Positions 11,506 through 62,929 of a stretch of DNA of 64,000 nucleotides are shown piece by piece. Origin of the DNA: Planctomycetota bacterium. Its GTDB lineage: Bacteria > Planctomycetota > JAMOSO01. Under the pieces are notes generated by a model. It was not told the origin of the DNA. It did not search any database and saw only the letters and a list, made by a program, of their open reading frames with translations. The DNA is taken from positions 1,524 through 65,523 of the forward strand of contig JAMOSO010000003.1 of the NCBI GenBank assembly GCA_027063065.1, given 5' to 3'. Position 1 is the first letter of the stretch; each line of letters begins with the position of its first letter. The position numbers and the translations under genes were made by a program.

Positions 11506-11540
11506 AAGATCTTTTTCCTTTAATAAGGACCCATTGGATC

Positions 11541-11570
11541 AAAAAAAACACCCTCACACATTTGAGGGCC
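11541..11570 (-). terminator. Stem-loop (ccctca/tgaggg) followed on the minus strand by T8, 35 nt upstream of rpsJ start: intrinsic terminator or S10-leader attenuator
   Basis: Minus-strand reading ggccctca-aatgtg-tgagggtg-tttttttt. Leaves no room for a promoter between hairpin and rpsJ. Confidence 0.6.
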
Positions 11571-11574
11571 ATGT

Positions 11575-11602
11575 AATATATCGTTTTAAAATATATTTGC
11601 AA
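11575..11602 (-). promoter_or_regulatory. Candidate sigma-70 promoter of S10 operon (TTGCAA-N16-TATATT), upstream of the leader hairpin
   Basis: Minus strand: TTGCAA (complement of 11597-11602), 16-nt spacer, TATATT (complement of 11575-11580). Confidence 0.4.
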
Positions 11603-11621
11603 TAAATTTTATTTTTTTATT

Positions 11622-11660
11622 AAAAAAAATAGCCCTCTTTATTTGAGGGCTATTTTTTAA
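11622..11660 (-). terminator. Bidirectional intrinsic terminator (8-bp GC-rich stem tagccctc/gagggcta, loop tttattt, T-runs on both sides) immediately downstream of rpsL
   Basis: Perfect hairpin 11630-11652 flanked by A8 upstream and T6 downstream on plus strand (so T-run on both strands). Confidence 0.7.
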
Positions 11661-11675
11661 GAATAAATATTTTAT

Positions 11676-12050
11676 TTATTTTTTAGGACGTTTTGCACCA
11701 TACTTTGAACGACCTTGTCTGCGCGACTCTACACCTGTAGCATCATAAACACCGCGCACAACGTGATAACGCACACCTGGAAGATCACGAACACGACCAC
11801 CACGCACCAATACGATACTATGCTCTTGTAAATTATGACCTTCACCACCGATATAGGCAGTTATTTCTTTCCCGTTAGAAAGACGAACACGCGCAATCTT
11901 ACGCAATGCCGAATTAGGCTTCTTTGGGGTTTGAGTTTTCACCTGAGTACATACACCACGCTTAAAAGCACAGCTTTCAAGCACAGGTGAATTAGAACGT
12001 TTTTTTACTTTAACGCGACCCTTACGGACCAGTTGATTAATTGTTGGCAT
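11676..12050 (-). CDS. rpsL: 30S ribosomal protein S12
   Basis: 124 aa, [12 protein letters not shown]... classic S12. Start codon lies 14 nt inside the 3' end of the rpoBC ORF. Confidence 0.95.
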
Positions 12051-15000
12051 TTACCAATTCTCCTTCAGTTTCTAAATCAGTTTTAACTTCTTCTTCAAGG
12101 ATTTCAGGTGCTTGAATTTTAAGCGGAGCCTTGAAAAGAGATTGTAATCCCGTTCCTGCAGGAATTACATGTCCCAGTATAACGTTTTCTTTTAAACCGA
12201 CAAGGTTATCTACCTTACCAGTAATAGCGGCATCAGTCAAAACCTTAGTAGTTTCTTGGAATGAAGCTGCCGATATAAAACTCTGGGAATTAATAGCCGC
12301 CTTAGTAACACCTAATAATGCTGGTGTTCCTGTGGGTGGCTGTTTTTTTGCTTCGATAAGACGCGCAACCTCAGATTTGAATAGCCATTTATCGACTTCT
12401 TCATTTGCAAGGAAACGACTATCTCCGGGATCTTCAACGTGAACCTTAGACAATTGGGCACGATTAATAATTTCTATATGCTTATCATCGATTCGCACGT
12501 TCTGGGTTGAGTATACACCTTGAACTTCTTTTAATAGATAACGTTGCAATTCTTCTTCACCCAAAATAGCAAGAATATCCTGCAAAACTAAAGGTCCATC
12601 AACTAGACCTTCACCTTTTTTAATAGGATCTCCAGTATGTACTCGCAAGTGCTTACCTTGAGGTATCAAATACTCTTTAGTAATGTCCGCATCTACGTTA
12701 GAAACTCTAACTACGCGTTTACCACGTTTTTTGTCACCTATTTCCACAATGCCGTCTATTTCAGATAGAATTGCTGGCTCTTTAGGTTTTCGAGCTTCAA
12801 ATAACTCTGTTACACGTGGTAAACCACCAGTAATATCCTGAGTACCTGCAATCTCACGAGGTGTTTTTGCCAAGACTGCACCAGCTTTTATCTCGGTACC
12901 TTCTTGCGCCTCTAAATGCGCTTTCTCTTGGATTCCATATATGCCCGCAACTTCACCATCTGCAGTTTCAATTACAATTTGAGGATGATAGTCACCTTTA
13001 TGTTCCATAATAACAGAACGTTTAATACCACTGGTATCAACTTCTTCTTTCATAGTAATATCCGCTATAATATCTTCATAACGCACCTTACCTGCATGCT
13101 CTGAAATAATAGGCACCATATGTGGATCCCATTTAGCAAGAACATCTTTAGATTTGACTTTATCACCATTAGCAACAGGTATTTCCGCACCTGTTGGAAC
13201 AGCGTATCTTTCAATCTCACGACCTTTAGTATCTTGTACTGCAATGAAACCATTACGATTTAATACTAATGACTTACCTTCCTCATTGAACACTGTTTTT
13301 AAATTGTCATAAACAACAATTCCAGATTTCTTAGCATGAAACTCTGACTCTTGCAATGCACGAGAGGCAGTTCCACCAATGTGGAAAGTACGCATGGTAA
13401 GCTGAGTTCCTGGCTCTCCAATTGACTGCGCTGCAATAATTCCAACTGCCGTTCCAGGTTCAACCATAGAACCAGTAGAAAGCATCATACCATAACATTT
13501 AGCACAAATACCCCTATCAGCCTCACAAGTTAAAGGTGAACGCACACGTATCTTGTCATAATTTAACGCTTCAATCTTTTTAGCTATTTCTTGAGTAATT
13601 AATTCTGACTCTTTAACAATCACTTCACCGGTTACAATATCAACAATTGTATCTCTAGCAACACGACCATAGATATTTGTACTCAAAGATACATCAATCT
13701 CGTCTCCACGATATACGACTCCTTTAGTAATACCCCTAAGAGTACCACAATCAGTCATAGTAATTACCTGGTTTTGAGAAACATCAACTAATTTACGCGT
13801 TAAATAACCTGAATCCGCTGTTTTTAAAGCAGTATCAGCCAAGCCCTTTCGTGCACCGTGTGATGATGAAAAGTACTCGAATCCACGTAAACCTTCTTTA
13901 AAGTTTGATTTAATAGGAGTCTCAATAATATCACCATTAGGCTTAGCCATCAATCCACGCATACCAGCTAACTGACGAATCTGCTGTTTAGAACCACGAG
14001 CTCCAGAATCCGCCATAATATAAACAGGATTCATAGGACCATCATCATTCGGCATCTGATCTTTAAGAGTTTGCATCATAGACTCACCAATTTGTTCTGT
14101 AACATGAGTCCAAATGTCAATAATTTGATTGTAACGCTCCATACGGGTTAAAGCACCCATCTTAAAATCACGCTCAATCTTTTTAACTTGTTTATCACCA
14201 GCCGCTAACAAAGTAGCTTTATCATCAGGTATTACCATATCAGCATGGCCAAAAGAAATACCCGCAAGAGTTGCTTGCTGATAACCAAGCGATTTTAAAT
14301 CATCAATCAATTTAATTGTTGGAATACGACCATTTATAGCATAACAATCGGCAATCACATCTTTAAGAACACCTTTTTTCATAGCCTTATTATAAAAAGG
14401 CATATTTTTTGGTAAAATGTTATCAAAAATAACGCGACCAACCATAGTTTCAACTAAACGACCTTTTCCACCACTAATTGAACCATCAGTTAAGACTTTA
14501 CGACCTTCTTCTAAACCTATCAAAATTCGATCATGAATTTTAATTACATTTTGAGCATAAGCCATCAAAACTTCTTCATTGTTACTGAAAATCTTTGTAG
14601 CTTCCTTACTACCGTTTGGTAAGCCTGTAATAAAGTAACAACCCAATACTATATCCTGTGAAGGACTTAGCGTAGGTTCGCCAGAAGCAGGTGAAAAAAT
14701 ATTTTGCGGAGCCATCATCAGTAAGAAAGCTTCAACCTTTGCCTCTTGAGACAACGGTAAATGCACAGCCATCTGATCACCATCAAAGTCCGCATTAAAA
14801 CCACCACAAACTAAAGGATGCAACTGAATAGCCTTACCTTCAATTAAAACTGGTTCAAAAGCTTGAATTCCAAGACGATGCAATGTTGGTGCTCGATTAA
14901 GCATTACAGGATGATTTTTAATCACATCTTCTACAATGCCCCAAATTTCCTCATCTTGTCTATCAATCATCTTGCGAGCACTCTTAATAGTGTCACATAA

Positions 15001-18000
15001 ACCACGATCTTTCAACCTGCGAATAATAAATGGTTGATAAAGTTCCAAGGCAATGCGTTTAGGCAATCCACATTGATGCAATTTTAATTCAGGTCCCACA
15101 ACAATTACAGAACGGGCTGAATAATCCACACGCTTACCTAATAAATTGCCACGGAATCTACCCTGCTTACCTTTAATCATATCAGTTAATGATTTCAGAG
15201 GACGATTACCTGTTCCCAATACAGCACGCTTACAACGAGCATTATCAAATAAAGCATCAACTGCTTGTTGTAGCATACGTTTTTCATTTTTGATAATAAT
15301 TTCTGGAGCATTTAAATCCATTAGATTTTTCAATCTATTATTACGATTAATTACTCGCCTATACAAATCATTCAAATCACTTGTAGCAAAATTACCTGAT
15401 TCCAAAGGAATAAGAGGTCGCAATTCAGGAGGTATAACGGGTATCACATTAAATATCATATCTTCTGGTTTATTTAATGATTCACCAAAGGCCTCTACTA
15501 TGCGCAAACGTTTGATAATATTCTTTTTAGTTTGTTGAGATTTTGTTTTTTCAAAATTTTCTCTTAACTCTACTGCCATTTTAACAACGTCAATAGTAGA
15601 TAAAATATCACGTATTGCTTCTGCACCCATAGCTGCACGGAACTCTGCACCAAACTTAGCACGAGTTTCTGCATACTCTTCTTCAGAAAGTATTTCACAA
15701 AATTTCAACGGAGTATCACCCGTTTCAATAACTATATATTTTTGGAAATAAATAACTTGCTGTAAATCAATTGTTTTAATGTCTAGCAAATTAGCAATTT
15801 TAGAAGGAATAGCCTTAAAAAACCAAATATGCGCAACTGGAGCAGCTAAATTAATGTGCCCCATTCTTTCACGACGCACTTTAGACCTAACTACAGATAC
15901 GCCACAACGGTCACAAGTAATACCTTTATATTTGATACCTTTATGCTTGCCACAAAAACATTCCCAGTCCTTAGTAGGCCCAAAAATCTTTTCACAAAAC
16001 AAGCCGTCACGTTCTGCACGGAACGAACGGTAATTGATAGTTTCTGGTTTTTTAACTTCACCATGACTCCAAGACCGCACTTCCTCAGCTTTGGCAATAG
16101 ATATACAAACTCGTGCAATATCATTAATTTTATCTATTTCACCTGTTTCAGGGGCTGCAGCTTCAACAGCGTCTGCCAACTCTGTTCCCGCGAAAATATC
16201 TTCTGTATCTGATTGATGTTTTTCAGTACGTAAATTTAAACCCAAACCACGGATTTCATTAACTAATACTTGAAAAGAAACTGGAGTACCAGATTCTAAA
16301 ACATTTTTTCCTCGAATCATAGATTCGTATATTTTTGTTCTTCCATCAACATCGTCAGATTTTACAGTCAAAAGTTCTTGTAAAATAGATGCTGCTCCAT
16401 AAGCCTCTAAAGCCCAAACTTCCATTTCTCCAAAACGCTGACCACCCATTCTAGCTTTACCGCCTAATGGTTGTTGCGTAATCAAAGAATAAGGACCTGT
16501 ACCACGTGCATGAATTTTGTCTTGCACTAAATGATGCAATTTCAACATATACATCACGCCAACAGTTGTACGTTGTTTAAACTTCTCACCCGTACGACCA
16601 TCATAAAGTTGTGATTTACCGCTTGGATTCATGCCCGCTTCGTTTAAAGCTTCGGCTATATCCTCTTTATTAGCACCAGTAAATACTGGAGTAATAGCTT
16701 GATATCCCATTAGCTTAGCTGCAAAGCCTAAGTGAGTTTCCAAAATCTGACCGACATTCATTCGCGATGGTACGCCTAACGGATTTAAACATATATCAAC
16801 GGGAGTACCATCTTCCAAGAATGGCATATCTTCTTGAGGCATTACCCTTGATACAACACCTTTATTTCCGTGTCGACCCGCCATTTTATCACCAGCTTGT
16901 AATTTTAACTTTCTAGCAACATAAACTTTAACAAGCTCTAACACTCCATGAGGAAGTTCATCACCATAACGCAAGTTATTTAATGCTTTCTCTTTTTCTG
17001 CACACAAAGCTGACACACCTGCATCATACTCTAAAATTGCATCTTTACATTGCCTTTCCTTGCCAGGTTCAAATTTAATATCTTCAACCTTCAAACTCTC
17101 TGAAATAGCAATGTACTCATCAGCTTTAAGACCCATAGGTAAAACACCAACCTTACGACCTTTAACATCAACAAGAGGTGCCCCATTAAGTTCTTCAAGT
17201 GTAGCAAATTTTTTCTTAATTAATTTAATAATTTTCTCATTACTCTCTTCGCGTACAACCTTAAGTTTTGCTGTCGGAGCTCTACGTCTTGGTGCGCCAT
17301 CTTCACCGCCACCATTTCGCTTAAACTTCTTAACATTAACTACAGTGCCAATAACACCTGGTTTAACGCTCAAAGAATCATTTTTTACATCTTCAGCTGA
17401 TTTACCGAAAATTGAATATAATAATTTTTCTTCTGGCGTTAAATCGCTTTTAGATCTCGGTGCAATTTTCCCTACTAAAATATCTCCAGGATTAACTTTA
17501 GTACCAATAGCTACTACGCCACTGTCATCTAAATTTGCCAAGGCGTCTTCTGGAACATTAGGTATATCACGAGTAAATTCTTCTTGACCTAACTTAGTCG
17601 CCCTAATTTCAGCAGAAAAACACTCTATATGAATAGAAGTAAATGTGTCATTTTTTAATAAATTTTCATTTACTAAAATAGCGTCTTCAAAGTTATAACC
17701 TTCCCAAGGTACAAACGCCACTGTAATGTTTTTACCTAAGGCCAAAACACCACCGTCAGTTGCAGGGCCGTCCGAAATAACCTGTCCAGCACTAACCTTT
17801 TCACCAACTTTTACCAATGGTTTTTGATTAATACAAGTACGCTCATTCAAACCCTCAAACTTACGCAATTTATATTCTTTGTCACCTATCACAATTAAAT
17901 TAGATTGAACTTTTGTAACTGTCCCTGCTTCCTCAGCAATGACAATCATTCCAGAATTTTTAGCAATTTCTGCCTCCATTCCTGTAGCAACCCAAGGTTG

Positions 18001-19890
18001 TTCAGTACGCAACAAAGGCACTGCTTGACGTTGCATATTAGATCCCATCAATGCACGATTAGCGTCATCATGCTCTAAGAAAGGTATCAAAGAAGCTGAT
18101 ACACCAACCAATTGTTTAGTTGATATATCCATTAATGTAACTTTTGATGAAGCAACTAATTTTACATCTTGTTGATTTCTAACTAATACTTGATCAGGAA
18201 CAATACGATTACCGTCCATCTCAACGTCTGCTTGCACAATAAATTGATCTTCTTCTTCATCAGCACGCATTTCTACTAATTCATCGGTAACGCACCCGTC
18301 TACTACCTTACGATAAGGAGTTACAATAAATCCCATATCATTTATAGATGCATAAATAGATAAAGACACAATCAAGCCAATATTAGCGCCCTCTGGTGTC
18401 TCAATAGGACATACTCGCCCGTAATGAGACATGTGAACATCTCGCACCTCAAAGCCTGCGCGTTTACGATTAAGACCACCTGGCCCCAAAGCAGAAAGTC
18501 TGCGTTCATTTGTTAACTGCGAAAGCGGGTTTGATTGATCGACAATATGAGATAATTCACCGCGACTAAAGAAATACTCAATAGCTGATGAAACAGCCTG
18601 GGACTGAACCAATGAACGAGGAGTTAAACGATCCTCGTTTTTTAAAGTCATTTTTTCTTTAACACCACGAGTTAAACGCAATAATCCACGTTGTATTTCC
18701 ATGCCTAACATCTGATCTATTGTTCGCACACGACGATTACCTAAATGATCGATATCATCTAAATGCGCGCCGTTACTTCCCGAACGTATATCAAGCAAAT
18801 ATTGAACAATGCCTTGCATATCAGTTTGAGTCAAAGTAAAAATTTGTTCGTCTACATTGACATTTAACTTACGATTTAAACGAAATCGACCAATATTTCC
18901 TAAATTATAACGAGAAGGATTCTCAAATCTTTCTTCAAATAATTCTCTCGCTTTATCAATAGGAGCCGGACTACGAGGGCGTACTTGCTGATATATTCTA
19001 ATTTTGGCTTCGTCGGCACTTTTTGTAGTATCCTGACGAATAGTATTCAATAACAAATCATCTTTAACTTCTTTAATAACAGAAAAACTTTTCAGTCCTG
19101 TTGACTCAATAGCTGCTATCATTTCTTCAGGAATCACTTCTTTTGACTCAAGAAGAACCTCACCCGTATTAGGATCGATAATATCTTCAACTAAAACACA
19201 GTTCGCCAATTGTTTGTAATCTGATTTTGAATTAATATTTATAGTTTCCACATTATAAAAACATGAAAGAATATCCTTATCGCTACTATTTTCACCCATG
19301 GTAGCGCGTAAAAAACAAGTGGCAACTACTTTGACACGTTGATCAATTTTTAAACGTAAAATATTACGATTAGTAACTTCCAACTCCATCCATGAGCCCA
19401 TTTCAGGTATAATGCGACAAGTAACTAATTTTTGACCTGATGGATGTGTAATTTCTGCAAAATCCACTCCTGGAGAACGCTGAATTTGTGATACGACAAC
19501 GCGTTCAGCACCATTTATCAAAAATTCACCGCCACCTATCATTTTGGGAACTTCACATAAATAGATAGATTCTTCGACTGACTCATCGTCACGTGTAAAA
19601 CGCAACCAAAGTTTAAGTGGATATGAATAGGTTAGACCTAAATCTCTACACTGTTGTACAGTGAAACGTGGCTCTCCCAATTCGTACTTGATGTACTCAA
19701 GAGCCATCGAGCCATCATAGCTCGATATGGGGAATAGCTCGCTAAATATTTTTTCGAGGCCTACATGTTGACGATCACAATATAGAACATCTTTTTGGAG
19801 GAAGGATTGATAAGACTTTCGCTGAATATCAGTTAATGTTCCAACTTTTGCGATAGATTCAACCTTTTTACCGTAGTGACGGATTTCCAT
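12037..19890 (-). CDS. rpoBC: DNA-directed RNA polymerase beta-beta' fusion protein (RpoB-RpoC single polypeptide, 2617 aa)
   Basis: Single uninterrupted ORF. N-terminal ~1225 aa carry RpoB motifs (…GPGGL…, NMQRQAVPL, …[18 protein letters not shown]…). After a linker (…[54 protein letters not shown]) comes the RpoC N-terminus ([16 protein letters not shown]…[11 protein letters not shown]…CFCGKHKG) and NADFDGD catalytic motif through to the C-terminus. Junction maps to roughly 16100-16220. Confidence 0.9.
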
Positions 19891-19931
19891 CCGGACTCCT
19901 TAAGTAACAATTATTTTATTATATGAAAGAA

Positions 19932-19967
19932 CTATAGGAGACCACCTCGTCGAGGGGTCTCCTATAG
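19932..19967 (-). promoter_or_regulatory. Long stem-loop in the rplL-rpoB intergenic region (ctataggagacc…ggtctcctatag, 12+5 bp)
   Basis: 12-bp perfect inverted repeat with an inner 5-bp pair (cctcg/cgagg). Followed on minus strand by a short T-rich run. Position is equivalent to the E. coli rplL-rpoB attenuator/RNase III site. Confidence 0.5.
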
Positions 19968-19996
19968 AGAAAAGTAACTTATTGTGTTACGCAATA

Positions 19997-32672: not shown

Positions 32673-32780
32673 ATAAAAAATTATAAATATTTCAATCTTT
32701 AAATTTTGTAATATGTCAAAAAACTTGAACTACAAATTTTGCATCTTATAATATTGTTTCCTTCAAATTATAAGGATAAT

Positions 32781-34691
32781 ATGAGCGATCCAATTAAACA
32801 TGAATGCGGTATCGGAATGATCCGCCTACTAAAACCCCTAGACTATTTTATTGAAAAATATGGTACACCCTTATGGGGATTAAATAAACTATATCTATTA
32901 ATGGAAAAACAACACAATCGAGGCCAAGATGCTTTTGGAATTGGGTGTGTAAAATTGAATATGCCTGTGGGCAATTCATTTATGATGCGCGAACGTTCTG
33001 TCGCAAACAACCCCATTGAAGATGCGTTTAAAAATATATCTACAGAATACAACAGCCTAAAACAAGCTGGAAAATTTAAGCAAAACACAGGATTTAGCTA
33101 CAAAGAAAATTTTGCCTTTGCGGGAGAACTCTATCTAGGCCATTTAAGATATGGCACACATGGCGAAAACAGTATTCACGTTGCCCATCCAGTTGTTAGA
33201 CGCAACAATTGGATAACTAAAAATATTATGTTAGCTGGTAATTTCAACATGACTAACACTCCTGCGTTAATCAAACGTCTAATGGAATTTGGACAACATC
33301 CAACGCGCAATACTGATACCATGACCATCTTAGAACAAATAGGTTACTGTGTTGATGAGGCCTATGACAAATTAAGAAGAGAACTACAAAGCGATAGCTT
33401 AAACGGCTTAGAGCTAACAGAAGAAATATCCAACCAAATTAATCTTTTAAACATTTTAAAAGACGCAAGCAAACAATGGGATGGCGGATATGTATTTGGA
33501 GGCTTCACCGGCAGTGGCGATTCTTTTGTAATGCGCGACCCTAACGGTATACGACCATGCTCTTATATCCAAACAGATGAATATGTTGCAATAGCAAGTG
33601 AACGCGTTGCTTTAATGACTGCATTCGATAGCGATATCGATTCTGTACAAAATCTACCACCAGGACATGCCATTACTATAAATCGTAAAGGTAAAATGCA
33701 AATAGATCAAGTTATGCAACCTCGCACAAAAGCTCACTGTTCGTTTGAACGCATATATTTTTCTAGACCTAACGACCCTGAAATATATACTGAACGCAAA
33801 AAATTAGGACAAGCTATTGTTCCGCAAATATTAAAAAGTATCAATAATGACTTAGAAAATGCCGTGTTTGGATTTATCCCTAATTCTGCAGAAATAGCAT
33901 ATTTAGGAATGATCGAAGCATTAGAAGATAAGTGCAAAGAAATTACCAAAAATAAAATTTTAGAGGCGCAAAAACAAGGCGAACTTACTCCCGAACAAAT
34001 TGATAAATTTTTATCATTAAAACCACGAGCTGAAAAAGTTGCCATTAAAGACGTTAAAATGCGTACGTTTATTTCTCAAAGTGATGGACGTAAAGACTTG
34101 GTTAGTCACGTATATGATATAACCTATGGCATTATTAAGCCAACAGACACCTTAATATGTATTGATGATTCAATAGTACGCGGTACAACTATGCGGGAAT
34201 CAATTTTAAGAATATTAAGTCGACTAAACCCTAAAAAAATTATTATTATTTCTTCTGCTCCACAAATCAGATATCCAGATTGTTATGGTATTGATATGTC
34301 AAGAATGACAGAATTTATTGCTTTTGAAGCTACTATTGCCCTATTACAAGAAAACAACCAAAGCGCATTAATAGATGAAGTATATAAACTGTGTGTTGAG
34401 CAGGCTCAACTACCAGATAACAAACTGCACAATTATGTTAGCAGGCTTTATAAAGAGTTTAGTCCTCAAACAGTATCAGATAAAATCACTGAAATGCTAA
34501 CTCCAACAAATATCAATTGGAAAGGCTCTATTGAAATTATTTATCAAAGCATCGAAGGCTTACACAAAGCTATACCAGAACATTCTGGCGACTGGTATTT
34601 TACTGGTAATTATCCTACACCAGGAGGTTATCGAGTACTTAATACTGCTTTTATAAATTATTACGAAAAAAACGATAAACGTTCATATTAG
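32781..34691 (+). CDS. purF: amidophosphoribosyltransferase, long form (class II glutamine amidotransferase + PRTase)
   Basis: Propeptide MSDPIKHE then nucleophile Cys (CGIGMI…) and C-terminal PRPP-binding loop (LICIDDSIVRGTTM). ORF track extends 14 codons further upstream (32739). AAGGA RBS precedes 32781. Confidence 0.75.
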   Translation: MSDPIKHECGIGMIRLLKPLDYFIEKYGTPLWGLNKLYLLMEKQHNRGQDAFGIGCVKLNMPVGNSFMMRERSVANNPIEDAFKNISTEYNSLKQAGKFKQNTGFSYKENFAFAGELYLGHLRYGTHGENSIHVAHPVVRRNNWITKNIMLAGNFNMTNTPALIKRLMEFGQHPTRNTDTMTILEQIGYCVDEAYDKLRRELQSDSLNGLELTEEISNQINLLNILKDASKQWDGGYVFGGFTGSGDSFVMRDPNGIRPCSYIQTDEYVAIASERVALMTAFDSDIDSVQNLPPGHAITINRKGKMQIDQVMQPRTKAHCSFERIYFSRPNDPEIYTERKKLGQAIVPQILKSINNDLENAVFGFIPNSAEIAYLGMIEALEDKCKEITKNKILEAQKQGELTPEQIDKFLSLKPRAEKVAIKDVKMRTFISQSDGRKDLVSHVYDITYGIIKPTDTLICIDDSIVRGTTMRESILRILSRLNPKKIIIISSAPQIRYPDCYGIDMSRMTEFIAFEATIALLQENNQSALIDEVYKLCVEQAQLPDNKLHNYVSRLYKEFSPQTVSDKITEMLTPTNINWKGSIEIIYQSIEGLHKAIPEHSGDWYFTGNYPTPGGYRVLNTAFINYYEKNDKRSY

Positions 34692-41062: not shown

Positions 41063-43552
41063 CTATTCTTGCTCACGTATTTTAAGTTCAATTAACTTTA
41101 ATCGCAATTTTGTCTCAGCATTGTCTGGATAACGATTTAAGATTTCCTCATAAACACGCTTAATAGCATCGTATAAACGGTTTTTTTCAAAGTTCTCAAC
41201 TAATTTATACCGTCCTTCAATATAATTCATTTCTATTTGTTTTAATTTTTTACATTTATTTAAGTATCCATATAAGTCTTGTACTTGCGTATAGGCTTTA
41301 GACATTGCATAATCACTTTCAAATTTAGTTAACAACTGCCCAGCCAGTACAAAATCACCTTTTGAAATAACTTTTCTAATTTTTTCAACCAATTTATTGG
41401 CTGCTAAATTCATTTGCAATGCATCATAGTCACGTTGTTTTTTTTGTAAGTTTTTACGTAAAACTCTTATTTGCTTCTCCACTGGCAAACCAGCAAAACG
41501 CACTTCATATTGACGACAATCATTATAAAAATGAGCTATCTTTTTTCTATGCTCTGGCATATCAACACGCAAACGCTGAAAGGTTAGTTTTAAATCTGAC
41601 AAAGTTTTACTAGATTTAACTTTAATATCTTCCTGTATCTTACGAGCACTAAGAATAAACTCTGTACCTGCTTTACTGTTTAAAATACTTCTGACTACCT
41701 TACTCGCCTTAGAAAAATCTTTCTCGCTCATAAATAATTTAGCTTGTACCAATAACTTTTTTGATGATTTATTAAACTGTGGGGAATAATTTAAAACTTG
41801 CAAAACCCTAACCTTATCATTTCTATCAGCGATTACAGACATTCCTTGATTACGCAAGGTAAATTCAAAAGGTTGTTCATCTTTAAATATGACCGACTGC
41901 ACAGGATTTTTTAAAACTAATACCTCAGATAATAATTGAGATTTTACATCAGCAGACAAAAACACCTCCTTATCTGCAACCGAAAAAGCTTCAATATCTT
42001 GTACATGCGATGACAAATCCAACCCATAAACTAAAGATGCATCTGCGACTGACGGAACTACATTCCATGCACCATTTACATATTCACAATTTAATTGATA
42101 CGGTTCAAACATATTTTTATCAATATCATATAAGACACCCTTTATACTAGCAGAGGATGCGTTACAAATTAAATCGCTGGTTAAATACCCCATAGTCTGA
42201 CTTCGTAAAACTCCACCAACATACCGTTTAACAAGTTCCAAATTTGCGATACCAACTTTTGCGTCAACTGAAAAGCATAGATTTCCTGCACTTCCTATAG
42301 TGACCATAGATTTTTTAAAAGACATAGAAGCCGATCTGCGCATTACAGCCCCCACACCTCCATCATAGATCGCCACATCATCAATCAAAACAGTGCCATC
42401 AATGCCATAAAACAAGAATGCTGGTTGAACTCTTTCAACACCTTTTGGTATAACAAAATAATCTTCAAAGCTTGCATATTTATTACTAGCACACCAAGAA
42501 CGACCTCGCAATATTACTCCATCGCCATTAACATCTTTATACAACAAAGCCAATTGCACAACGCCAGATTGCAAATCAGTCTGAATATCCACCTTGTAAG
42601 TAATCGTATCGTTATTAATTTCTATAGGATTTGCATAAACCAACTTAGATTCTAAAGTACCTATACTTTGAGCGCCTAAAACCATCAAAGAATGCTTACC
42701 GTCCATAGCATCATCACTTAATTTAATCTCTAATCCACTTTTGATAGTTGCATCCCAACCTTCTAAAATATTAGATACAGATTCAAAAGAAGAATTATTA
42801 AGCAATTTATTAATCCTAGAATCGTGATAATCCGCAGGACGCAAAATAAATGCCAACACAACAACAATTGCCAATACTACAGAAACAATAACTGGCATTT
42901 TTTTTACTAAGCCAATATCGCGTTTAATTATATTTTTTTTATCCTGAATCTCTTTCAAATCTTCATCAGTACCTACAAAAAGTAAAGTTTTACCTATTCT
43001 GAACACATGATTTTGAGACAAATTTATAGTTTCAACTCTAAGTTTGTTAACCCATAAACCATTAGAGCTACCCAAATCTTTAACTACCCAACCTGCACTC
43101 CCCACCTCCACCACTGCATGCCTTTGCGAAACACCAGAATCATTTGACAAAGACACATCACAACCTTTGCGACCCAAAACTACGGACTCATTACCTAAAT
43201 CAACTTTAACCCCTTCATGTGGACCACTTAAAACTTGCAAAAATACCTGCTGATTATTTAAATCTGGCAATTGCCCAAAATAAAATAAATCCTCCCCCAA
43301 AGACACTTTATCGCCTGGACATAATTCTTGTTCACTATCAATCTTGACCCCATCAACAAATGTACCATTACTGCTACCAAGGTCGTCTATCGTAACTAAT
43401 AGCCCGTTATTTATTATTTTACAATGGGTTCTACTTAGGCCTTTTCCATTTAAACTTAAATCGCAACCTTCGTCGCGACCTATTACACAAGTTTCGGATT
43501 CAAATACAAATTCTTCAAAAACCAAACCTTTTTTGACATATAACTTAATCAC
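41063..43552 (-). CDS. Double-FHA-domain transmembrane protein with large extracytoplasmic region (CBM4_9-like beta-sandwich + C-terminal helical/TPR-like tail)
   Basis: 829 aa. Two N-terminal FHA domains (…CVIGRDEGCDLSL…SRTHCKI…LGSSNGTFVDG… and …VVLGRKGCDVSLS…SQRHAVVE…LGSSNGLWVN…). Single TM (VIVSVVLAIVVVLAFIL). Then about 600 aa periplasmic region, part of which resembles a carbohydrate-binding/jelly-roll module ending …GTVLIDDVAIYD. Confidence 0.7.
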   Translation of the reverse strand: MIKLYVKKGLVFEEFVFESETCVIGRDEGCDLSLNGKGLSRTHCKIINNGLLVTIDDLGSSNGTFVDGVKIDSEQELCPGDKVSLGEDLFYFGQLPDLNNQQVFLQVLSGPHEGVKVDLGNESVVLGRKGCDVSLSNDSGVSQRHAVVEVGSAGWVVKDLGSSNGLWVNKLRVETINLSQNHVFRIGKTLLFVGTDEDLKEIQDKKNIIKRDIGLVKKMPVIVSVVLAIVVVLAFILRPADYHDSRINKLLNNSSFESVSNILEGWDATIKSGLEIKLSDDAMDGKHSLMVLGAQSIGTLESKLVYANPIEINNDTITYKVDIQTDLQSGVVQLALLYKDVNGDGVILRGRSWCASNKYASFEDYFVIPKGVERVQPAFLFYGIDGTVLIDDVAIYDGGVGAVMRRSASMSFKKSMVTIGSAGNLCFSVDAKVGIANLELVKRYVGGVLRSQTMGYLTSDLICNASSASIKGVLYDIDKNMFEPYQLNCEYVNGAWNVVPSVADASLVYGLDLSSHVQDIEAFSVADKEVFLSADVKSQLLSEVLVLKNPVQSVIFKDEQPFEFTLRNQGMSVIADRNDKVRVLQVLNYSPQFNKSSKKLLVQAKLFMSEKDFSKASKVVRSILNSKAGTEFILSARKIQEDIKVKSSKTLSDLKLTFQRLRVDMPEHRKKIAHFYNDCRQYEVRFAGLPVEKQIRVLRKNLQKKQRDYDALQMNLAANKLVEKIRKVISKGDFVLAGQLLTKFESDYAMSKAYTQVQDLYGYLNKCKKLKQIEMNYIEGRYKLVENFEKNRLYDAIKRVYEEILNRYPDNAETKLRLKLIELKIREQE

Positions 43553-45512: not shown

Positions 45513-45649
45513 TTTAAGTAAAATTCAGTTAATTCTAAATAATTTAAAGTAATAGCTATTACTGTTGCAACAACAGCTATTATCATAAACCAAACATAAA
45601 TACTATCTTTGTTAATAATAGGCTGATCAATAGACTCTTGTTGAAGCAT
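45509..45649 (-). CDS. Possible 46-aa single-TM micro-protein overlapping the junction of the coiled-coil gene and mreB
   Basis: Hand translation gives MLQQESIDQPIINKDSIYVWFMIIAVVATVIAITLNYLELTEFYLS*. ATG 23 nt inside the upstream gene. TGA stop overlaps the mreB GTG start. No SD checked. Speculative. Confidence 0.25.
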   Translation of the reverse strand: MLQQESIDQPIINKDSIYVWFMIIAVVATVIAITLNYLELTEFYLK

Positions 45650-46490
45650 TATCGCCCTCCTTAATTTGTTTTTCTGTATAATCATTTAAGATTCGTGCTG
45701 AACACATATCAGGAAATATTTTTTCAACCTCTACCTTACCTAAATACTCAGAATCACGATATACTGTAAAGCGATAGCCTTGTTTGACTTCGTTTTGACT
45801 GCCAACACTTAGCATTACTAAATTAGCATCTGCTCTCACAGCCAATACTTGAGCCCTTATAGGTGTAGCTGGTCCACCAGAAATTGCAATTTCTTCTACA
45901 GGGATACCATTTTCTCTTAACTGTGCAATTATACCTTTGTTAATCTCCAATTGCTTTGTGACATCTGCTAATTTAATTTCCGCTTTTTCTAATTCAGTCT
46001 TAAGAACCTGCAAAGACTCTTCTGCTTCTGCTCTTTTTGTAGTTGCCTCTAAACGTTCAGCTTTAGCAGTGTCAGTAATTTCTTTAAGTTCGTCAGTTTT
46101 AGCTCTTAAATCCATAACCATCTGATCTTTTTCAGATAATTCTCGATCTTTGGCATCTATTTTCAAATCTTTAGAAGACACAATAGCCTCCAATTTGGTT
46201 ACTCTATTATTAGCTTCACTGAGTTCGTCACGTTTTTCTTTAAAGTCATTTGTCATATTTTCTAGGCTTGTTTTTACCGCCTCTAAAGCATCGTTAGTAC
46301 TAACAATTTTATCTTTCAACTGTGCCACTTTAGATTTCAAGTCTGTTGATTCCTTTTTGTAATCGGCACTTACCTTTTCATATTTACTACGCCAATCAAC
46401 ACGATGAGTAAACAAAACCACAGAGGTTCCACAATAAACGATGCTTAAAATCAACATCAAAAAGGCCATTATTTTTGATACTACATTCAT
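45627..46490 (-). CDS. Membrane-anchored coiled-coil protein with C-terminal beta-rich domain (function unknown)
   Basis: 287 aa. N-terminal TM (IMAFLMLILSIVYCGTSVVLF), about 160 aa of heptad-like K/E/L-rich sequence, C-terminal about 90 aa (…IRAQVLAVRADANLVMLSVGSQNEVKQGYRFTVYRDSEYLGKVEVEKI…). Confidence 0.7.
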   Translation of the reverse strand: MNVVSKIMAFLMLILSIVYCGTSVVLFTHRVDWRSKYEKVSADYKKESTDLKSKVAQLKDKIVSTNDALEAVKTSLENMTNDFKEKRDELSEANNRVTKLEAIVSSKDLKIDAKDRELSEKDQMVMDLRAKTDELKEITDTAKAERLEATTKRAEAEESLQVLKTELEKAEIKLADVTKQLEINKGIIAQLRENGIPVEEIAISGGPATPIRAQVLAVRADANLVMLSVGSQNEVKQGYRFTVYRDSEYLGKVEVEKIFPDMCSARILNDYTEKQIKEGDNASTRVY

Positions 46491-58031: not shown

Positions 58032-59081
58032 ATGACTAAGGCCTTAAGCGAAATAATTAAGGCTTTAAAGCCAATTAATTGCAATCTAAAAAAAGACATC
58101 AACATCACCTCTTTAGCGTCTCTGAGCGACGCCAAAGAAGGTGATATCAGTTTTTTAACCAATACAAAATATATTGCCCAATTATCTTCTACATGTGCAT
58201 CTGCTGTTTTGGTTAAACCAGAACATGCCGATATACAATCCAACGCCATTTTAATTATCGTAGATAATCCTAATCTGGCCTTTGCGGAAGTAGCCAAGTT
58301 ATTGGGGTTTGAAAGACCTGTATCGCCTATGGGCATATCAGACAAGGCTTGTATTGCAAAAGATGCTCACATCTCAAATGATGTAAAGATACAAGCATAT
58401 AGTGTGATAGCTTCTGGTGTAAGCATTGGCGAATCGACAAATATTTATCCAAATGTAGTCATAGAAAACAATGTCAAAATTGGTAAATACTGCACTATCT
58501 ATCCTAATGTTACTATTATGGATGGCTGTGAAATTGGCGATAATGTCATAATTAATGCTGGTAGTGTAATAGGAAGTGACGGTTTTGGATTTGATTTAGA
58601 AAGTCCTGATAACACCAAAATACCACAAGTCGGCAACGTAATCATTGGCAATAATGTAGAAATTGGTGCCAATGTGAGCATTGATAGAGCAAGGTTTGGA
58701 TCTACAATTATCCAAGACAACGTCAAAATCGACAATCTTGTTCAAATCGCTCACAACGTCGTAATAGGTAAAAATTCAGTGATAGTTTCTCAAACTGGTA
58801 TAGCAGGTAGCTCTAAACTTGGCACGGGAGTAATAGTTGGAGGGTGTACTGCCATTTCAGGACATCTGCGTATAGCAGATAATTCTATGTTTGCTGGACG
58901 CTCAGGGGTTACCAAATCAATAACTAATGCTGGCATTTATGCTGGATTACCTGCACAACCTATTAATTCATGGCGAAAAGATATAGCCAATATTCGGTCT
59001 TTACATAAAATAAAAAAGCATATTAAAGACCTTAAAGAAAGGATACTTAAAATTGAACACAATACCCCAAAAAACACTTAA
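58032..59081 (+). CDS. lpxD: UDP-3-O-(3-hydroxyacyl)glucosamine N-acyltransferase
   Basis: 349 aa. N-terminal LpxD domain plus left-handed beta-helix hexapeptide repeats (…IGDNVIINAGSVIGSDGFGF…). Confidence 0.9.
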   Translation: MTKALSEIIKALKPINCNLKKDINITSLASLSDAKEGDISFLTNTKYIAQLSSTCASAVLVKPEHADIQSNAILIIVDNPNLAFAEVAKLLGFERPVSPMGISDKACIAKDAHISNDVKIQAYSVIASGVSIGESTNIYPNVVIENNVKIGKYCTIYPNVTIMDGCEIGDNVIINAGSVIGSDGFGFDLESPDNTKIPQVGNVIIGNNVEIGANVSIDRARFGSTIIQDNVKIDNLVQIAHNVVIGKNSVIVSQTGIAGSSKLGTGVIVGGCTAISGHLRIADNSMFAGRSGVTKSITNAGIYAGLPAQPINSWRKDIANIRSLHKIKKHIKDLKERILKIEHNTPKNT

Positions 59082-60333
59082 ATCAACTGTTATCATAAAA
59101 GGTGTCGGCCTACACAGCGGAGAAACTGCCAATTTAATCCTTGAGCCTGCCACCGCTAATCATGGAATCAAATTTATACGTACTGATGTTGATAAAAAAA
59201 ACATCATTGAATTAAATCCAGCCAATATAGTTTATAATGATAGGCGCACTCAATTAACCAATGGCAACGTCAACATCAATACTATAGAACACCTACTTGC
59301 CGTACTACATATTTTAGGTATCACAGAATTAACTATAAAATGTGACTGCGAGGAACTACCCGGTTGTGATGGATCTGGTAAAATTTACCTAGAAAAAATT
59401 GATGCTGTCGGAATTGAAACTTTAGGTGCCGAAACAAACATATTAGAAATCAATACCCCTCTTACTGTTGATAGTGAACATGGCAATATTACTGCTATAG
59501 CAAATAAAGATTTCATTATAGACTATACCTTAGACTACTCTGCCTTTGGTGTCAGCCTGCAACATAAAACTATTAATATTACAGAGCAAACATTTCGAGA
59601 AGAAATTGTCAACTGCCGTACTTTTTGTATGAAGCAAGAGTGGGATCAACGGTTAGAACACAACCTTGGCAAAGGTGCTAGTCTAGAAAATACATTAGTG
59701 ATGGATAAGGACACTCCTTTAGAAAATAAATTTAATCAACCGTTAGAGTTAAGCTGTCATAAAATTTTAGATTTAATTGGTGATTTATATCTAACTGGTC
59801 AGCCCGTTAAAGGCAAATTTATTGCTTTGAAATCTGGGCATGCCGCAAATGTTGAACTGACTCAAAAAATATTTAACCAAAGGCCTACCGAACCCGTTTA
59901 TCATCTTGAAGAACTATTAAAAGTTTTACCTCACCGATATCCAATGATGATGGTTGATCGCTTAGAAAAATTAGAACCTAAAAAAAGAGCTGTAGGATAT
60001 AAAAATTTAAGTTTTAATGAGCCTTTTTTTCAGGGGCACTTTCCTGGACAGCCTGTTATGCCTGGTGTATTGCAAATTGAAGCTATGGCACAATTAGCTG
60101 GATGCATTTTAATTGATCCTAATAGCAAAACTAAGTTAATACCAATGTTTACTGCCATCGACGGAGTTAAGTTTAGACGTCCCGTTGTACCTGGCGATAG
60201 ACTGGATATGGATACTCGTATTGTAAAGTTTAGACGAAATATGGGTGAAGTAATCGGAAAAGCCACTGTCAATGGTCAGGTTGCCTCAGAGGCCACTTTT
60301 AGATTTATTCTTATAGAAGGACCTCAAGAATGA
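59053..60333 (+). CDS. lpxC/fabZ: bifunctional UDP-3-O-acyl-GlcNAc deacetylase / 3-hydroxyacyl-ACP dehydratase (LpxC-FabZ fusion)
   Basis: 426 aa. Residues 1-~280 LpxC (…TLKSTVIIKGVGLHSGETANLILEPA…HG…, …HKILDLIGDLYL…). Residues ~285-426 FabZ hot-dog (…LPHRYPMMMVDRL…GHFPGQPVMPGVLQIEAMAQ…). Overlaps lpxD 3' end by 29 nt. Confidence 0.9.
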   Translation: MNTIPQKTLKSTVIIKGVGLHSGETANLILEPATANHGIKFIRTDVDKKNIIELNPANIVYNDRRTQLTNGNVNINTIEHLLAVLHILGITELTIKCDCEELPGCDGSGKIYLEKIDAVGIETLGAETNILEINTPLTVDSEHGNITAIANKDFIIDYTLDYSAFGVSLQHKTINITEQTFREEIVNCRTFCMKQEWDQRLEHNLGKGASLENTLVMDKDTPLENKFNQPLELSCHKILDLIGDLYLTGQPVKGKFIALKSGHAANVELTQKIFNQRPTEPVYHLEELLKVLPHRYPMMMVDRLEKLEPKKRAVGYKNLSFNEPFFQGHFPGQPVMPGVLQIEAMAQLAGCILIDPNSKTKLIPMFTAIDGVKFRRPVVPGDRLDMDTRIVKFRRNMGEVIGKATVNGQVASEATFRFILIEGPQE

Positions 60334-62233: not shown

Positions 62234-62929
62234 ATGACACTCAAAAAAACATATTTTAGCCTAATCGAAGTTATCATTGCAATTGGCATTATCGCTGGCA
62301 TTATGGGGGTTACTTATGGATTTATGCGACAAGGATTATTAGTACGCGAACACAGCAAACAAATATCACGTCAAATCCGCCTTGAACATAATTTACTTAA
62401 TACTATATCTAAAGACATACAAGGTGCTCAATGGATAGATGCAAGCCCTATTGAAATTTTTAATCTTCAAAAAGACAAAGTACACCCTAGCTCATCAAAA
62501 CTGCAAATGTTGAGCTTTTCTAAGTTATATAACCCAGAAACCCAAACCAATACATATCTTAACCAAATAACGTACGCAATCGACTTAATGCCAAATGGTG
62601 AAAACTACGCCTTGTATAGGCAAAAAATAAGCTTAAACGACCTCAAAGACGACTCCAATAATTGGGAATATATATATGGCCCTATTACTGATTTTACTGT
62701 ACAAGTTTGGGATAAAGACAAGTCTGATTGGTTGGATAAATTCTCTAGTGGTAAATCTAAAGCCTTGCCAAATATCGTACAAATTATCATACAATTACCT
62801 AAAACCGATTTGCAAAATAAAAGTATTATTTTTCAACGTAAAATTGTTTTGCATAATAATACAACCTTTAAAAAGGCTAAACTAGAATCAAATAATGAAA
62901 TATCAAAACAACATTTGTCCGGATCATAA
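62234..62929 (+). CDS. prepilin-type N-terminal domain protein (minor pseudopilin-like, T2SS/T4P GspI/J-like)
   Basis: 231 aa. MTLKKTY|FSLIEVIIAIGIIAGIMG… has F+1, E+5 and the hydrophobic helix of class III signals, but Tyr instead of Gly at -1. Starts 1 nt after lpxB stop. Confidence 0.5.
   Translation: MTLKKTYFSLIEVIIAIGIIAGIMGVTYGFMRQGLLVREHSKQISRQIRLEHNLLNTISKDIQGAQWIDASPIEIFNLQKDKVHPSSSKLQMLSFSKLYNPETQTNTYLNQITYAIDLMPNGENYALYRQKISLNDLKDDSNNWEYIYGPITDFTVQVWDKDKSDWLDKFSSGKSKALPNIVQIIIQLPKTDLQNKSIIFQRKIVLHNNTTFKKAKLESNNEISKQHLSGS

Follow-up and report, generated by a model that had tools for sequence, protein, structure and literature searches.

Introduction

The β and β′ subunits of RNA polymerase are joined in one natural polypeptide in Helicobacter and Wolinella (family NF007172, "DNA-directed RNA polymerase subunit beta/beta'") and in Wolbachia and other Anaplasmataceae (NF011417). 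The Helicobacter-type RpoBC is encoded by one open reading frame (ORF), in which a complete β is followed by a complete β′, with a short, nonconserved linker connecting the β C-terminus to the β′ N-terminus, and the fused product occurs in the cell as a single chain. The Wolbachia-type proteins have the same head-to-tail architecture. The β C-terminus and the β′ N-terminus are believed to lie close together in the assembled enzyme, and these ends were reportedly tethered in Escherichia coli by Severinov et al. (in J Biol Chem, 1997), with assembly and function kept.

Here we analyze an rpoBC gene found in the window, that is, the whole stretch of 64,000 nucleotides under study. It is very probably a genuine, evolved fusion, which arose most likely in this lineage alone and which encodes one tethered ββ′ chain.

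Architecture of the rpoBC Gene

The rpoBC gene (12037–19890, minus strand) is one ORF, which opens with an ATG at 19890, continues for 2617 codons, and closes with the stop codon at 12037–12039; it encodes a fused ββ′ subunit of 290.2 kDa. Its RpoB-homologous part (residues 1–1226; 16213–19890, minus strand) is delimited by Pfam, by TIGR02013, and by identity to the RpoB proteins of two unfused relatives, L081 (GCA_973473515.1) and L082 (JGI 3300019487). All the β domains of Pfam (Rpb2_1, _2, _3, _45, _6, and _7) lie within residues 19–1223, and the rpoB profile TIGR02013 is matched with 1528.9 bits, against a curated cutoff of 801, residues 5–1221 corresponding to profile positions 6–1237 of 1238. 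The RpoC-homologous part (residues 1251–2617, the start being approximate; 12040–16140, minus strand) is delimited by Pfam, TIGR02386, and motifs. It holds every β′ domain, Rpb1_1 to Rpb1_5, within residues 1256–2491, and matches the rpoC profile TIGR02386 over residues 1261–2584 with 1699.7 bits (curated cutoff, 963.5). The catalytic motif NADFDGD is intact at residue 1699, and so are the cysteines of the Zn finger, in CFCGK (residue 1311) and CDRCG (residue 1326). By profile and domain content, and for RpoC also by motifs, both parts are full length.

The two parts share one reading frame, with neither a stop codon nor a frameshift between them. The ORF and the Pfam, TIGR02013, and TIGR02386 matches thus bear out the first-pass annotation, which had proposed an in-frame rpoB-rpoC fusion giving one 2617-aa polypeptide. 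The two peptides it quoted are present, at residues 1211–1226 (the end of RpoB) and 1266–1290 (the start region of RpoC), and a codon read-out confirms that nothing interrupts the frame between them. Stop-codon recoding and programmed frameshifting were also considered and rejected, as the gene has neither a stop nor a frame change to bypass.

The spacer between rplL and rpoBC (19891–19996, minus strand) contains a strong hairpin (19932–19967; minimum free energy −32.6 kcal/mol, z = −4.74) followed by UUCUUUC, and a Shine-Dalgarno sequence, AAGGAG, 6 nt before the ATG. Downstream, rpsL (11676–12050, minus strand; ribosomal protein S12, 124 aa) begins with an ATG that lies within rpoBC, the two genes overlapping by 14 nt, and GAAGGAG, the Shine-Dalgarno sequence of rpsL, falls among the final rpoBC codons. 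The strand of rpoBC had been left out of the first-pass annotation; it is the minus strand.

Junction and Linker

RpoB homology stops at Q1226 (16213–16215) and RpoC homology begins at about E1251. Between them, codon read-out, composition, and alignment with unfused relatives define a linker of 24 residues (1227–1250; 16141–16212, minus strand), which corresponds to nothing in separate RpoB or RpoC proteins and contains seven acidic residues, six alanines, and no basic residue. The region given earlier for the junction, 16100–16220, can be narrowed to these positions. The linker of about 35 aa proposed at the same time includes some 15 residues that match the usual start of RpoC in the alignment; the linker proper is about 20–24 aa.

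The β′ part has no translation start of its own, as judged from start codons and Shine-Dalgarno sequences. The ancestral RpoC methionine aligns with P1247, encoded by CCT (16150–16152), in which all three bases differ from ATG, and the codon read-out finds neither ATG nor GTG across residues 1217–1270. The sole alternative start is a TTG at residue 1238, nine codons ahead of the aligned RpoC start, upstream of which no AGGA or GGAG core was found. Such a core is present in 27 of the 45 genes of the window, including rpoBC itself and all its operon neighbors (rplK, rplA, rplJ, rplL, rpsL, and rpsJ).

The linker also has the character of coding sequence. Its in-frame codon-usage score is 15.5 bits, compared with −18 and −40 when the two remaining frames are scored; this corresponds to the 95th percentile among in-frame windows of rpoBC, and no more than 0.35% of intergenic windows score as high. 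Across the junction, GC content and skew stay even. Since the ancestral methionine is CCT, the Shine-Dalgarno sequence is missing, the linker is coding-like, and the ORF is unbroken, the fusion appears to be evolved rather than an error. An AlphaFold model of residues 1100–1400 gives the linker pLDDT values below 50 and no secondary structure. This model, built on a 67-sequence alignment, is poor as a whole (mean pLDDT 52, pTM 0.39) and is hence taken as a weak hint of an unstructured linker, not as a basis for fold searches or distance estimates. The linker is probably flexible.

Relatives and Origin of the Fusion

For RpoC, every one of the nearest relatives is an unfused protein of Planctomycetota, with 61–65% identity, and the databases searched contain no relative closer than about 65%. 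The RpoB part shows 55–56% identity to the stand-alone RpoB of L081 and L082, and at most 50% identity to fused proteins. In these two relatives, rpoB and rpoC are separated by 48 nt (L081) and 10 nt (L082), and in L081 they are in the same frame, so that the spacer amounts to 16 in-frame codons. Judging by these sequences, the organism is related to Planctomycetota and branches deeply, and in those of its relatives that have been sampled rpoB and rpoC remain two genes. In a neighbor-joining tree, the only phylogenetic method used and one whose deep nodes are uncertain, the window protein groups with the unfused Planctomycetota in every one of 100 bootstraps, in a clade without any other fused protein, and with the nearest fused group in none of 100. 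Because it groups with unfused proteins, apart from all other fused ones, the fusion looks independent. Neither the bootstraps nor the linkers, which are dissimilar, point to common descent with the fused clades of PVC or Omnitrophota type.

The rpoB stop codon would have been lost across a short in-frame spacer, after which the start codon of rpoC would have decayed along with its ribosome-binding site, and the old spacer would finally have adapted into coding sequence, the order of the mutations being the presumed one.

Frequency of ββ′ Fusions

Outside Helicobacter and Wolbachia, such fusions had been described in the first-pass annotation as otherwise rare. This does not hold: the whole-protein search finds at least 119 other fused clusters, of 2231–3132 aa, in many lineages (with labels such as Omnitrophica, Elusimicrobia, Nitrospirota, and Verrucomicrobiota, among others), and 8 of the best 150 RpoB cluster representatives have the length of a fusion. 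The ββ′ fusion is a recurrent, known kind of event, and its presence here is less surprising than was assumed. A scan of GTDB genomes with a 512-aa junction query lists at least 80 loci from across Bacteria, not including the window's own genome; only three of the loci listed are fused (in Paceibacterota, Wolbachia, and Helicobacter), and because the ranking favors loci with rpoB and rpoC in the same frame, this number is no measure of fusion frequency.

Among the best 60 of 148 sequence matches in the PDB there is no naturally fused chain. As such a chain would match both halves and rank first, no solved structure of a natural fusion is identified. A literature search on rpoBC fusions in Omnitrophota and other candidate phyla found nothing relevant; Zakharova et al. 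(1999) and Lane and Darst (2010) are cited here through PMC7483510.

Discussion

The rpoBC protein is known from one contig of one assembly of the organism (k141_213666, 102,786 bp, a name style typical of MEGAHIT). The identical protein is listed in NCBI, JGI/IMG, and ENA, all three of which may carry one deposited assembly, and no independent copy of the junction, nor any relative, occurs among the 599 pattern matches of a scan of JGI metagenomes with linker-specific peptides. One may thus ask whether a linker stop was miscalled, or whether a chimeric contig joins rpoB and rpoC from two organisms. Several linker codons sit one substitution from a stop, so that a single miscalled base is formally possible, and artefacts of this kind do exist in public data: a protein search with the junction alone returns mostly frameshift-derived fragments of 200–350 aa (the best, 64% identical, is not a true fusion), and in the one contig inspected, L083, rpoB and rpoC are chopped into many pieces. 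Yet five junction-spanning fragments that were read fully (P0241, P0246, P0247, and P0249, with P0242/243 less clear) keep a methionine at the aligned RpoC start and have a basic, junk-like read-through spacer, unlike rpoBC, with its CCT codon, missing Shine-Dalgarno sequence, and excellent linker codon usage. A 7.85-kb ORF together with about 30 intact neighbor genes argues for a very low error rate, and one indel is insufficient to explain the fusion, because both parts are read in one frame. A chimera is further disfavored by L081 being nearest to both halves, by the even composition, and by a join that falls in unique rather than conserved sequence. An artefact is thus highly improbable. 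It is also very unlikely, though somewhat less so, that the fused ORF still yields separate subunits and a two-chain enzyme, by internal initiation at TTG1238 or by proteolysis of the linker. The position of this in-frame codon just ahead of the aligned RpoC start would suit initiation, and a linker predicted to be unstructured would be accessible to proteases, which is weak evidence. However, TTG1238 lacks the core motif that most genes in the genome use, no protease-site motif is evident, and the single polypeptide of Helicobacter, with the functional tether said to have been made in E. coli, suggests that cleavage is not needed. We infer that the fused protein stays uncleaved in the cell, at about 290 kDa.

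There remains the question of whether the fusion arose here or was inherited from an ancestor common to the fused lineages of PVC or Omnitrophota type and later split in the main Planctomycetota. The next clade outside the window protein and the unfused Planctomycetota contains nine fused proteins; if these are true sisters, one gain and one loss are as parsimonious as two gains, and other fused proteins are affiliated with PVC bacteria (P0041, labeled Puniceicoccales, and the P0002 group). Against this, the outer grouping with the nine has a bootstrap of only 28%, the linkers are dissimilar, with a gap between anchor points of 48 aa in the window protein and 22 aa in the nine-protein group, and the tree places unfused Verrucomicrobiota and Kiritimatiellota beyond that grouping, at a greater distance from the window protein than the fused groups. 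The end of rpoB lies about 19 codons from the former rpoC start, which matches the in-frame spacer of L081. Inheritance from a fused ancestor is accordingly very unlikely too, if a shade less so than the production of separate subunits.

In the favored reading, one mRNA frame would give a 290-kDa polypeptide folding into the β and β′ modules of the RNA polymerase core, the acidic linker of about 24 residues acting as a flexible tether between the β C-terminus and the β′ N-terminus. Obligatory 1:1 synthesis and cotranslational assembly of β and β′ would be expected, as in Helicobacter and Wolbachia. A broader reading is conceivable, if unlikely: that the transcription-translation cluster has been rewired in an unsampled sister lineage of Planctomycetota, of class or phylum rank, with β and β′ held at 1:1, rpsL translationally coupled to the end of rpoBC by their 14-nt overlap, and the str operon having lost rpsG-fusA, and that the acidic linker, which would sit near the RNA-exit channel (the β flap and the β′ Zn-finger region), has gained a function of its own beyond passive tethering, such as factor docking or nucleic-acid mimicry.

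As an independent and well-supported natural ββ′ tether, rpoBC is the first on the Planctomycetota branch, as far as our searches show. The survey shows that fusions occur again and again in many uncultured lineages, and that Helicobacter and Wolbachia are no special cases in this respect. That convergence has repeatedly led to one junction supports the β C-terminus and β′ N-terminus as natural fusion points, and cotranslational 1:1 assembly as a selectable trait; independent cases with unfused relatives help to reconstruct how essential multisubunit enzymes fuse. There is also a lesson for annotation, as public databases contain many "fusion" proteins whose span across the junction is an artefact of a frameshift. 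Real cases can be told from these by a start codon and a Shine-Dalgarno sequence that have been lost, and by linker codon usage like that of coding sequence.

Comparison with Known Systems

The organism is neither Helicobacter nor Wolbachia, as had been noted from its gene content (the LpxC-FabZ fusion listed there is real): the window protein misses both equivalog cutoffs, and its nearest relatives are Planctomycetota. With NF007172 it scores 2605.4 bits, against a cutoff of 5372, and its RpoC part is only about 51% identical to the Helicobacter type, whose proteins are longer (about 2880–2890 aa), carry lineage-specific insertions, and have an unrelated linker. As Helicobacter belongs to a different phylum, the two fusions have independent origins. 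With NF011417 the score is 2467 bits (cutoff, 4632) and the identity of the RpoC part about 50%. The Wolbachia-type proteins have a conserved 31 aa between anchors (KQN...NIAQSFDKISISIASPES), which still resemble a β′ N-terminus, and the bacteria that carry them live as obligate endosymbionts; the window, by contrast, has genes for flagellin, sigma-54, MreBC, BamA, and lipid A synthesis.

Fused proteins of uncultured lineages (P0002–P0065 and others) have the same architecture and a similar size (2470–2720 aa), and they too come from metagenome assemblies. They are labeled Omnitrophica, Elusimicrobia, Ca. Magnetobacterium, and Puniceicoccales, with one locus of Paceibacterota (L065), and for some of them the JGI annotation reads "subunit beta-beta'". 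The best of them reaches only 53% identity overall and no more than 59% in the RpoC part, below the unfused Planctomycetota; they fall outside the clade of the window protein and their linkers are unrelated to its own. The tether in E. coli is an artificial construct, whereas the window's fusion is natural. A functional tether of this kind gives a mechanistic basis for expecting activity from a natural fusion, and by analogy the fused polymerase of the window is expected to be active.

The closest sequences for both halves are the separate RpoB and RpoC of Planctomycetota (L081, L082, Brocadiia, Planctomycetaceae, and Sedimentisphaerales). These genomes have the gene order rplKAJL-rpoB-rpoC-rpsL, as in the window, and retain rpsG-fusA after rpsL. 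They differ in having a stop codon and 10–48 nt between the two genes, and an rpoC that starts with methionine (MDSLYDRINEY.../MVDTLYNRINDY...).

A Single Gene Encodes the β and β′ Subunits

The rpoBC gene is a single open reading frame on the minus strand, from an ATG at 19890 to a stop codon at 12037–12039, and its product has 2617 residues (computed mass 290.2 kDa). All Pfam domains of the β subunit lie within residues 19–1223 and all those of β′ within residues 1256–2491, and the protein passes, full length, the NCBIfam equivalogs for RpoB (TIGR02013, 1529 bits for a cut-off of 801) and RpoC (TIGR02386, 1700 bits for a cut-off of 963). The β′ part retains an intact catalytic motif (NADFDGD, residue 1699) and intact N-terminal zinc-finger cysteines (residues 1311–1330). 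One open reading frame, with complete domain sets and both cut-offs passed, thus bears out the in-frame rpoB-rpoC fusion proposed by the first-pass annotation, whose two junction peptides are found in RpoBC in a common frame with no intervening stop, and we judge its reading as a β-β′ fusion correct.

The junction was aligned with other β′ N-termini and with rpoB and rpoC of L081 (GCA_973473515.1) and L082 (JGI 3300019487), the two nearest relatives, in which the genes are separate. Homology to RpoB ends at Q1226 (…NLRTEKHQ) and homology to RpoC restarts at about E1251, where the segment aligns with LYDRINEYAAVSIRLASPEDIRRW of the relatives. The 24 residues between (16141–16212, minus strand) have no counterpart in the relatives; 7 are acidic, none is basic, and 6 are Ala. 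The junction stays where it had been placed, with the strand added and the boundaries sharpened. In a right-anchored alignment, the ancestral RpoC initiator Met maps to P1247, whose codon is CCT. A fragment model, poor overall (mean pLDDT 52), predicts a β C-terminal strand and a β′ N-terminal strand flanking the linker, which has pLDDT <50 and no secondary structure, a weak hint that it may be unstructured. The otherwise well conserved β′ N-terminal motif (I/L)ASP(E/D) reads ISIAKAEE in residues 1262–1270 (about 16081–16107); this divergence may stem from an N-terminus that is no longer free.

A Real Fusion or an Artefact?

Several independent lines of sequence evidence lead us to favor a real, evolved fusion. 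The codons of residues 1217–1270 include no ATG or GTG, and the sole alternative start there is a TTG at residue 1238, preceded by cgggaacagag. This lacks the AGGA/GGAG core that precedes 27 of the 45 window genes, among them rpoBC itself (AAGGAG), rplK, rplA, rplJ, rplL, rpsL, and rpsJ. Because CCT and ATG differ at all three bases, the fusion is not a one-step event. The codon-usage log-likelihood of the linker is +15.5 bits in the fusion frame, whereas the two remaining frames score −18 and −40. The fusion-frame value stands at the 95th percentile among 24-codon windows read in frame along rpoBC and is matched by only 0.35% of the intergenic windows of the stretch.

As RpoB and RpoC share a frame, a single indel error cannot explain the fusion, and an open reading frame of 7.85 kb with about 30 intact neighbors implies a low error rate. 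GC content and skew do not change across the junction and both halves share one nearest relative, which argues against a chimeric join. The source contig (ENA ERZ27262648 k141_213666, 102,786 bp) has a name style typical of MEGAHIT. The exact RpoBC protein is found in NCBI, JGI/IMG, and ENA, all three of which may hold the same assembly.

False fusions do occur in public data. A junction-only protein search (P0241–P0335) returned mainly junction-spanning proteins of 200–350 aa. Six complete sequences were read, and in five of them the aligned start of RpoC is still a Met, preceded by a basic, junk-like spacer. The window junction has the opposite pattern. In the one contig inspected with such a protein (L083, ENA ERZ21849166 contig_13352), rpoB and rpoC are broken into about eight open reading frames, as is typical of long-read assemblies full of frameshifts. 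False "fusions" of this sort could mislead automated surveys.

Relatives and Phylogenetic Position

A whole-protein search found at least 119 other fused clusters (2231–3132 aa), the best match having 53% identity. The two halves are closer to unfused proteins. For the RpoC half, the best 120 matches listed are all unfused β′ subunits (1362–1452 aa, 61%–65% identity), the named ones being Planctomycetota (Brocadiia, Kuenenia, Jettenia, and "Planctomycetes bacterium"), and the best fused protein has 58.6% identity. The RpoB half has 55%–56% identity to the separate RpoB of L081 and L082 versus at most 50% to fused proteins, and among 1.84 billion cluster representatives its best match is an unfused protein (1263 aa, 53% identity).

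When relatives were surveyed for the same fusion, the two nearest proved to carry separate genes, rpoB of 1225 and 1227 aa and rpoC of 1362 and 1372 aa, with gaps of 48 nt in L081 and 10 nt in L082. In L081 the two genes are already in one frame, with 16 codons from stop to Met, to which about 19 codons correspond in the window. A 512-aa junction query matched GTDB loci L001–L080, of which 77 among those listed are unfused, and 75 of these have rpoB and rpoC in a common frame; this excess is probably a ranking artefact and not biology, because tblastn can align through the stop and so lengthen in-frame alignments.

In a neighbor-joining tree of the RpoC part, the window groups with unfused Planctomycetota in 100 of 100 bootstraps, as sister to a clade that also holds Planctomycetaceae and Sedimentisphaerales loci, and no other fused protein falls inside this grouping. 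RpoC identity between the window and the Planctomycetota clade is 62%–66%, compared with 63%–100% (mean 73%) within the clade and 55%–59% between the clade and other PVC phyla, levels that point to a deep sister lineage of Planctomycetota or one within it. No close relative was found in the databases searched (RpoC at most about 65% identity, RpoB at most about 56%), and at 90% clustering EF-Tu, L7/L12, and RpoBC each form a cluster of one. The source organism probably belongs to a deep, unsampled lineage close to the base of the phylum.

Gene Neighborhood and Content of the Window

The rpoBC gene lies in a classical, tightly spaced cluster, in the order tRNA-Thr/Tyr/Gly/Thr, tuf, tRNA-Trp, nusG, rplK, rplA, rplJ, rplL, rpoBC, rpsL, rpsJ, rplC, rplD, and onward. 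The rpsL gene begins within rpoBC, its ATG 14 nt from the 3′ end (12037–12050, minus strand), and the last rpoBC codons (…ETEGE…, the β′ C-terminus) form its Shine-Dalgarno sequence GAAGGAG, which suggests that S12 translation is coupled to the RNA polymerase gene. In L081 and L082, this overlap is replaced by gaps of 48 and 74 nt, and rpsG (S7) and fusA (EF-G) follow rpsL, whereas both are absent from the entire window. The 170-nt rpsL-rpsJ spacer (11506–11675) contains two terminator-like sites of hairpin and T-run, one read by eye (about 11631–11651) and one computed (11550–11569), with a promoter-like TTGCAA-16-TATATT (11575–11602) between them. The rplL-rpoBC spacer holds a hairpin (19932–19967, minus strand) of 16 bp with one bulge, followed by UUCUUUC, and the spacer as a whole folds at −32.6 kcal/mol (z = −4.74 versus shuffles); it resembles the partial terminator (attenuator) between rplL and rpoB of E. 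coli.

At about 37% GC, the window is densely packed with genes. These include flagellin, sigma-54, MreB/MreC, BamA, lipid A enzymes, CTP synthase, and carbamoyl-phosphate synthase, a content that indicates a free-living diderm bacterium and not a reduced endosymbiont. The LpxC-FabZ fusion noted previously is present at 59053–60333 (plus strand), within an lpxD, lpxC-fabZ, lpxA, lpxB cluster, and joins LpxC (residues 6–274) to a FabZ/FabA-like dehydratase (residues 292–414), a known bifunctional architecture. An 829-aa protein (41063–43552, minus strand) has two N-terminal FHA/YscD-like cytoplasmic domains, and its gene directly precedes mreC and mreB in the same orientation. Three sizeable open reading frames match nothing in Pfam at E ≤ 1e-5: 650 aa (32739–34691, plus), 287 aa (45627–46490, minus), and 231 aa (62234–62929, plus).

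Origin and Comparison with Known Fusions

The simplest history would start from a short in-frame spacer and the loss of the rpoB stop in this lineage alone, continue with decay of the rpoC start and its Shine-Dalgarno motif, and end with adaptation of the spacer into a coding linker. The polypeptide would fold into normal β and β′ modules. The β C-terminus and the β′ N-terminus are close to each other, and an unstructured acidic linker of 24 residues could bridge several tens of angstroms. An engineered β-β′ tether is reportedly functional in E. coli. The expected outcome would be a fixed 1:1 stoichiometry of β and β′ and co-translational assembly.

Helicobacter has a natural fusion of this kind (Zakharova et al. 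1999, as cited in PMC7483510). The first-pass annotation held such fusions to be otherwise rare outside Helicobacter and Wolbachia, which fails for uncultured bacteria: fusion length is seen in 8 of the top 150 RpoB representatives (50% clustering), fused clusters are labeled Omnitrophica, Elusimicrobia, Candidatus Magnetobacterium, Puniceicoccales, "Firmicutes," Candidatus Mesenet, Wolbachia, and Helicobacter, and one Paceibacterota locus is likewise fused. Some are already called "subunit beta-beta'" by JGI annotation. Among the papers searched, none describes fusions outside Helicobacteraceae and Wolbachia, and a PDB sequence search found no natural fused chain among the best 60 of 148 matches. 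The survey shows β-β′ fusion to be an event that recurs across bacteria. The curated NCBIfam fusion models cover only the Helicobacter and Wolbachia types, and RpoBC scores about half of either cut-off, which places it outside both families; with its nearest relatives in Planctomycetota, this agrees with the earlier view that the window is neither Helicobacter nor Wolbachia. On these relationships, rpoBC is best read as an independent new case, from a poorly sampled lineage, of a known kind of fusion; Helicobacter, Wolbachia, and the tethered E. coli construct already explain the architecture and what probably follows from it.
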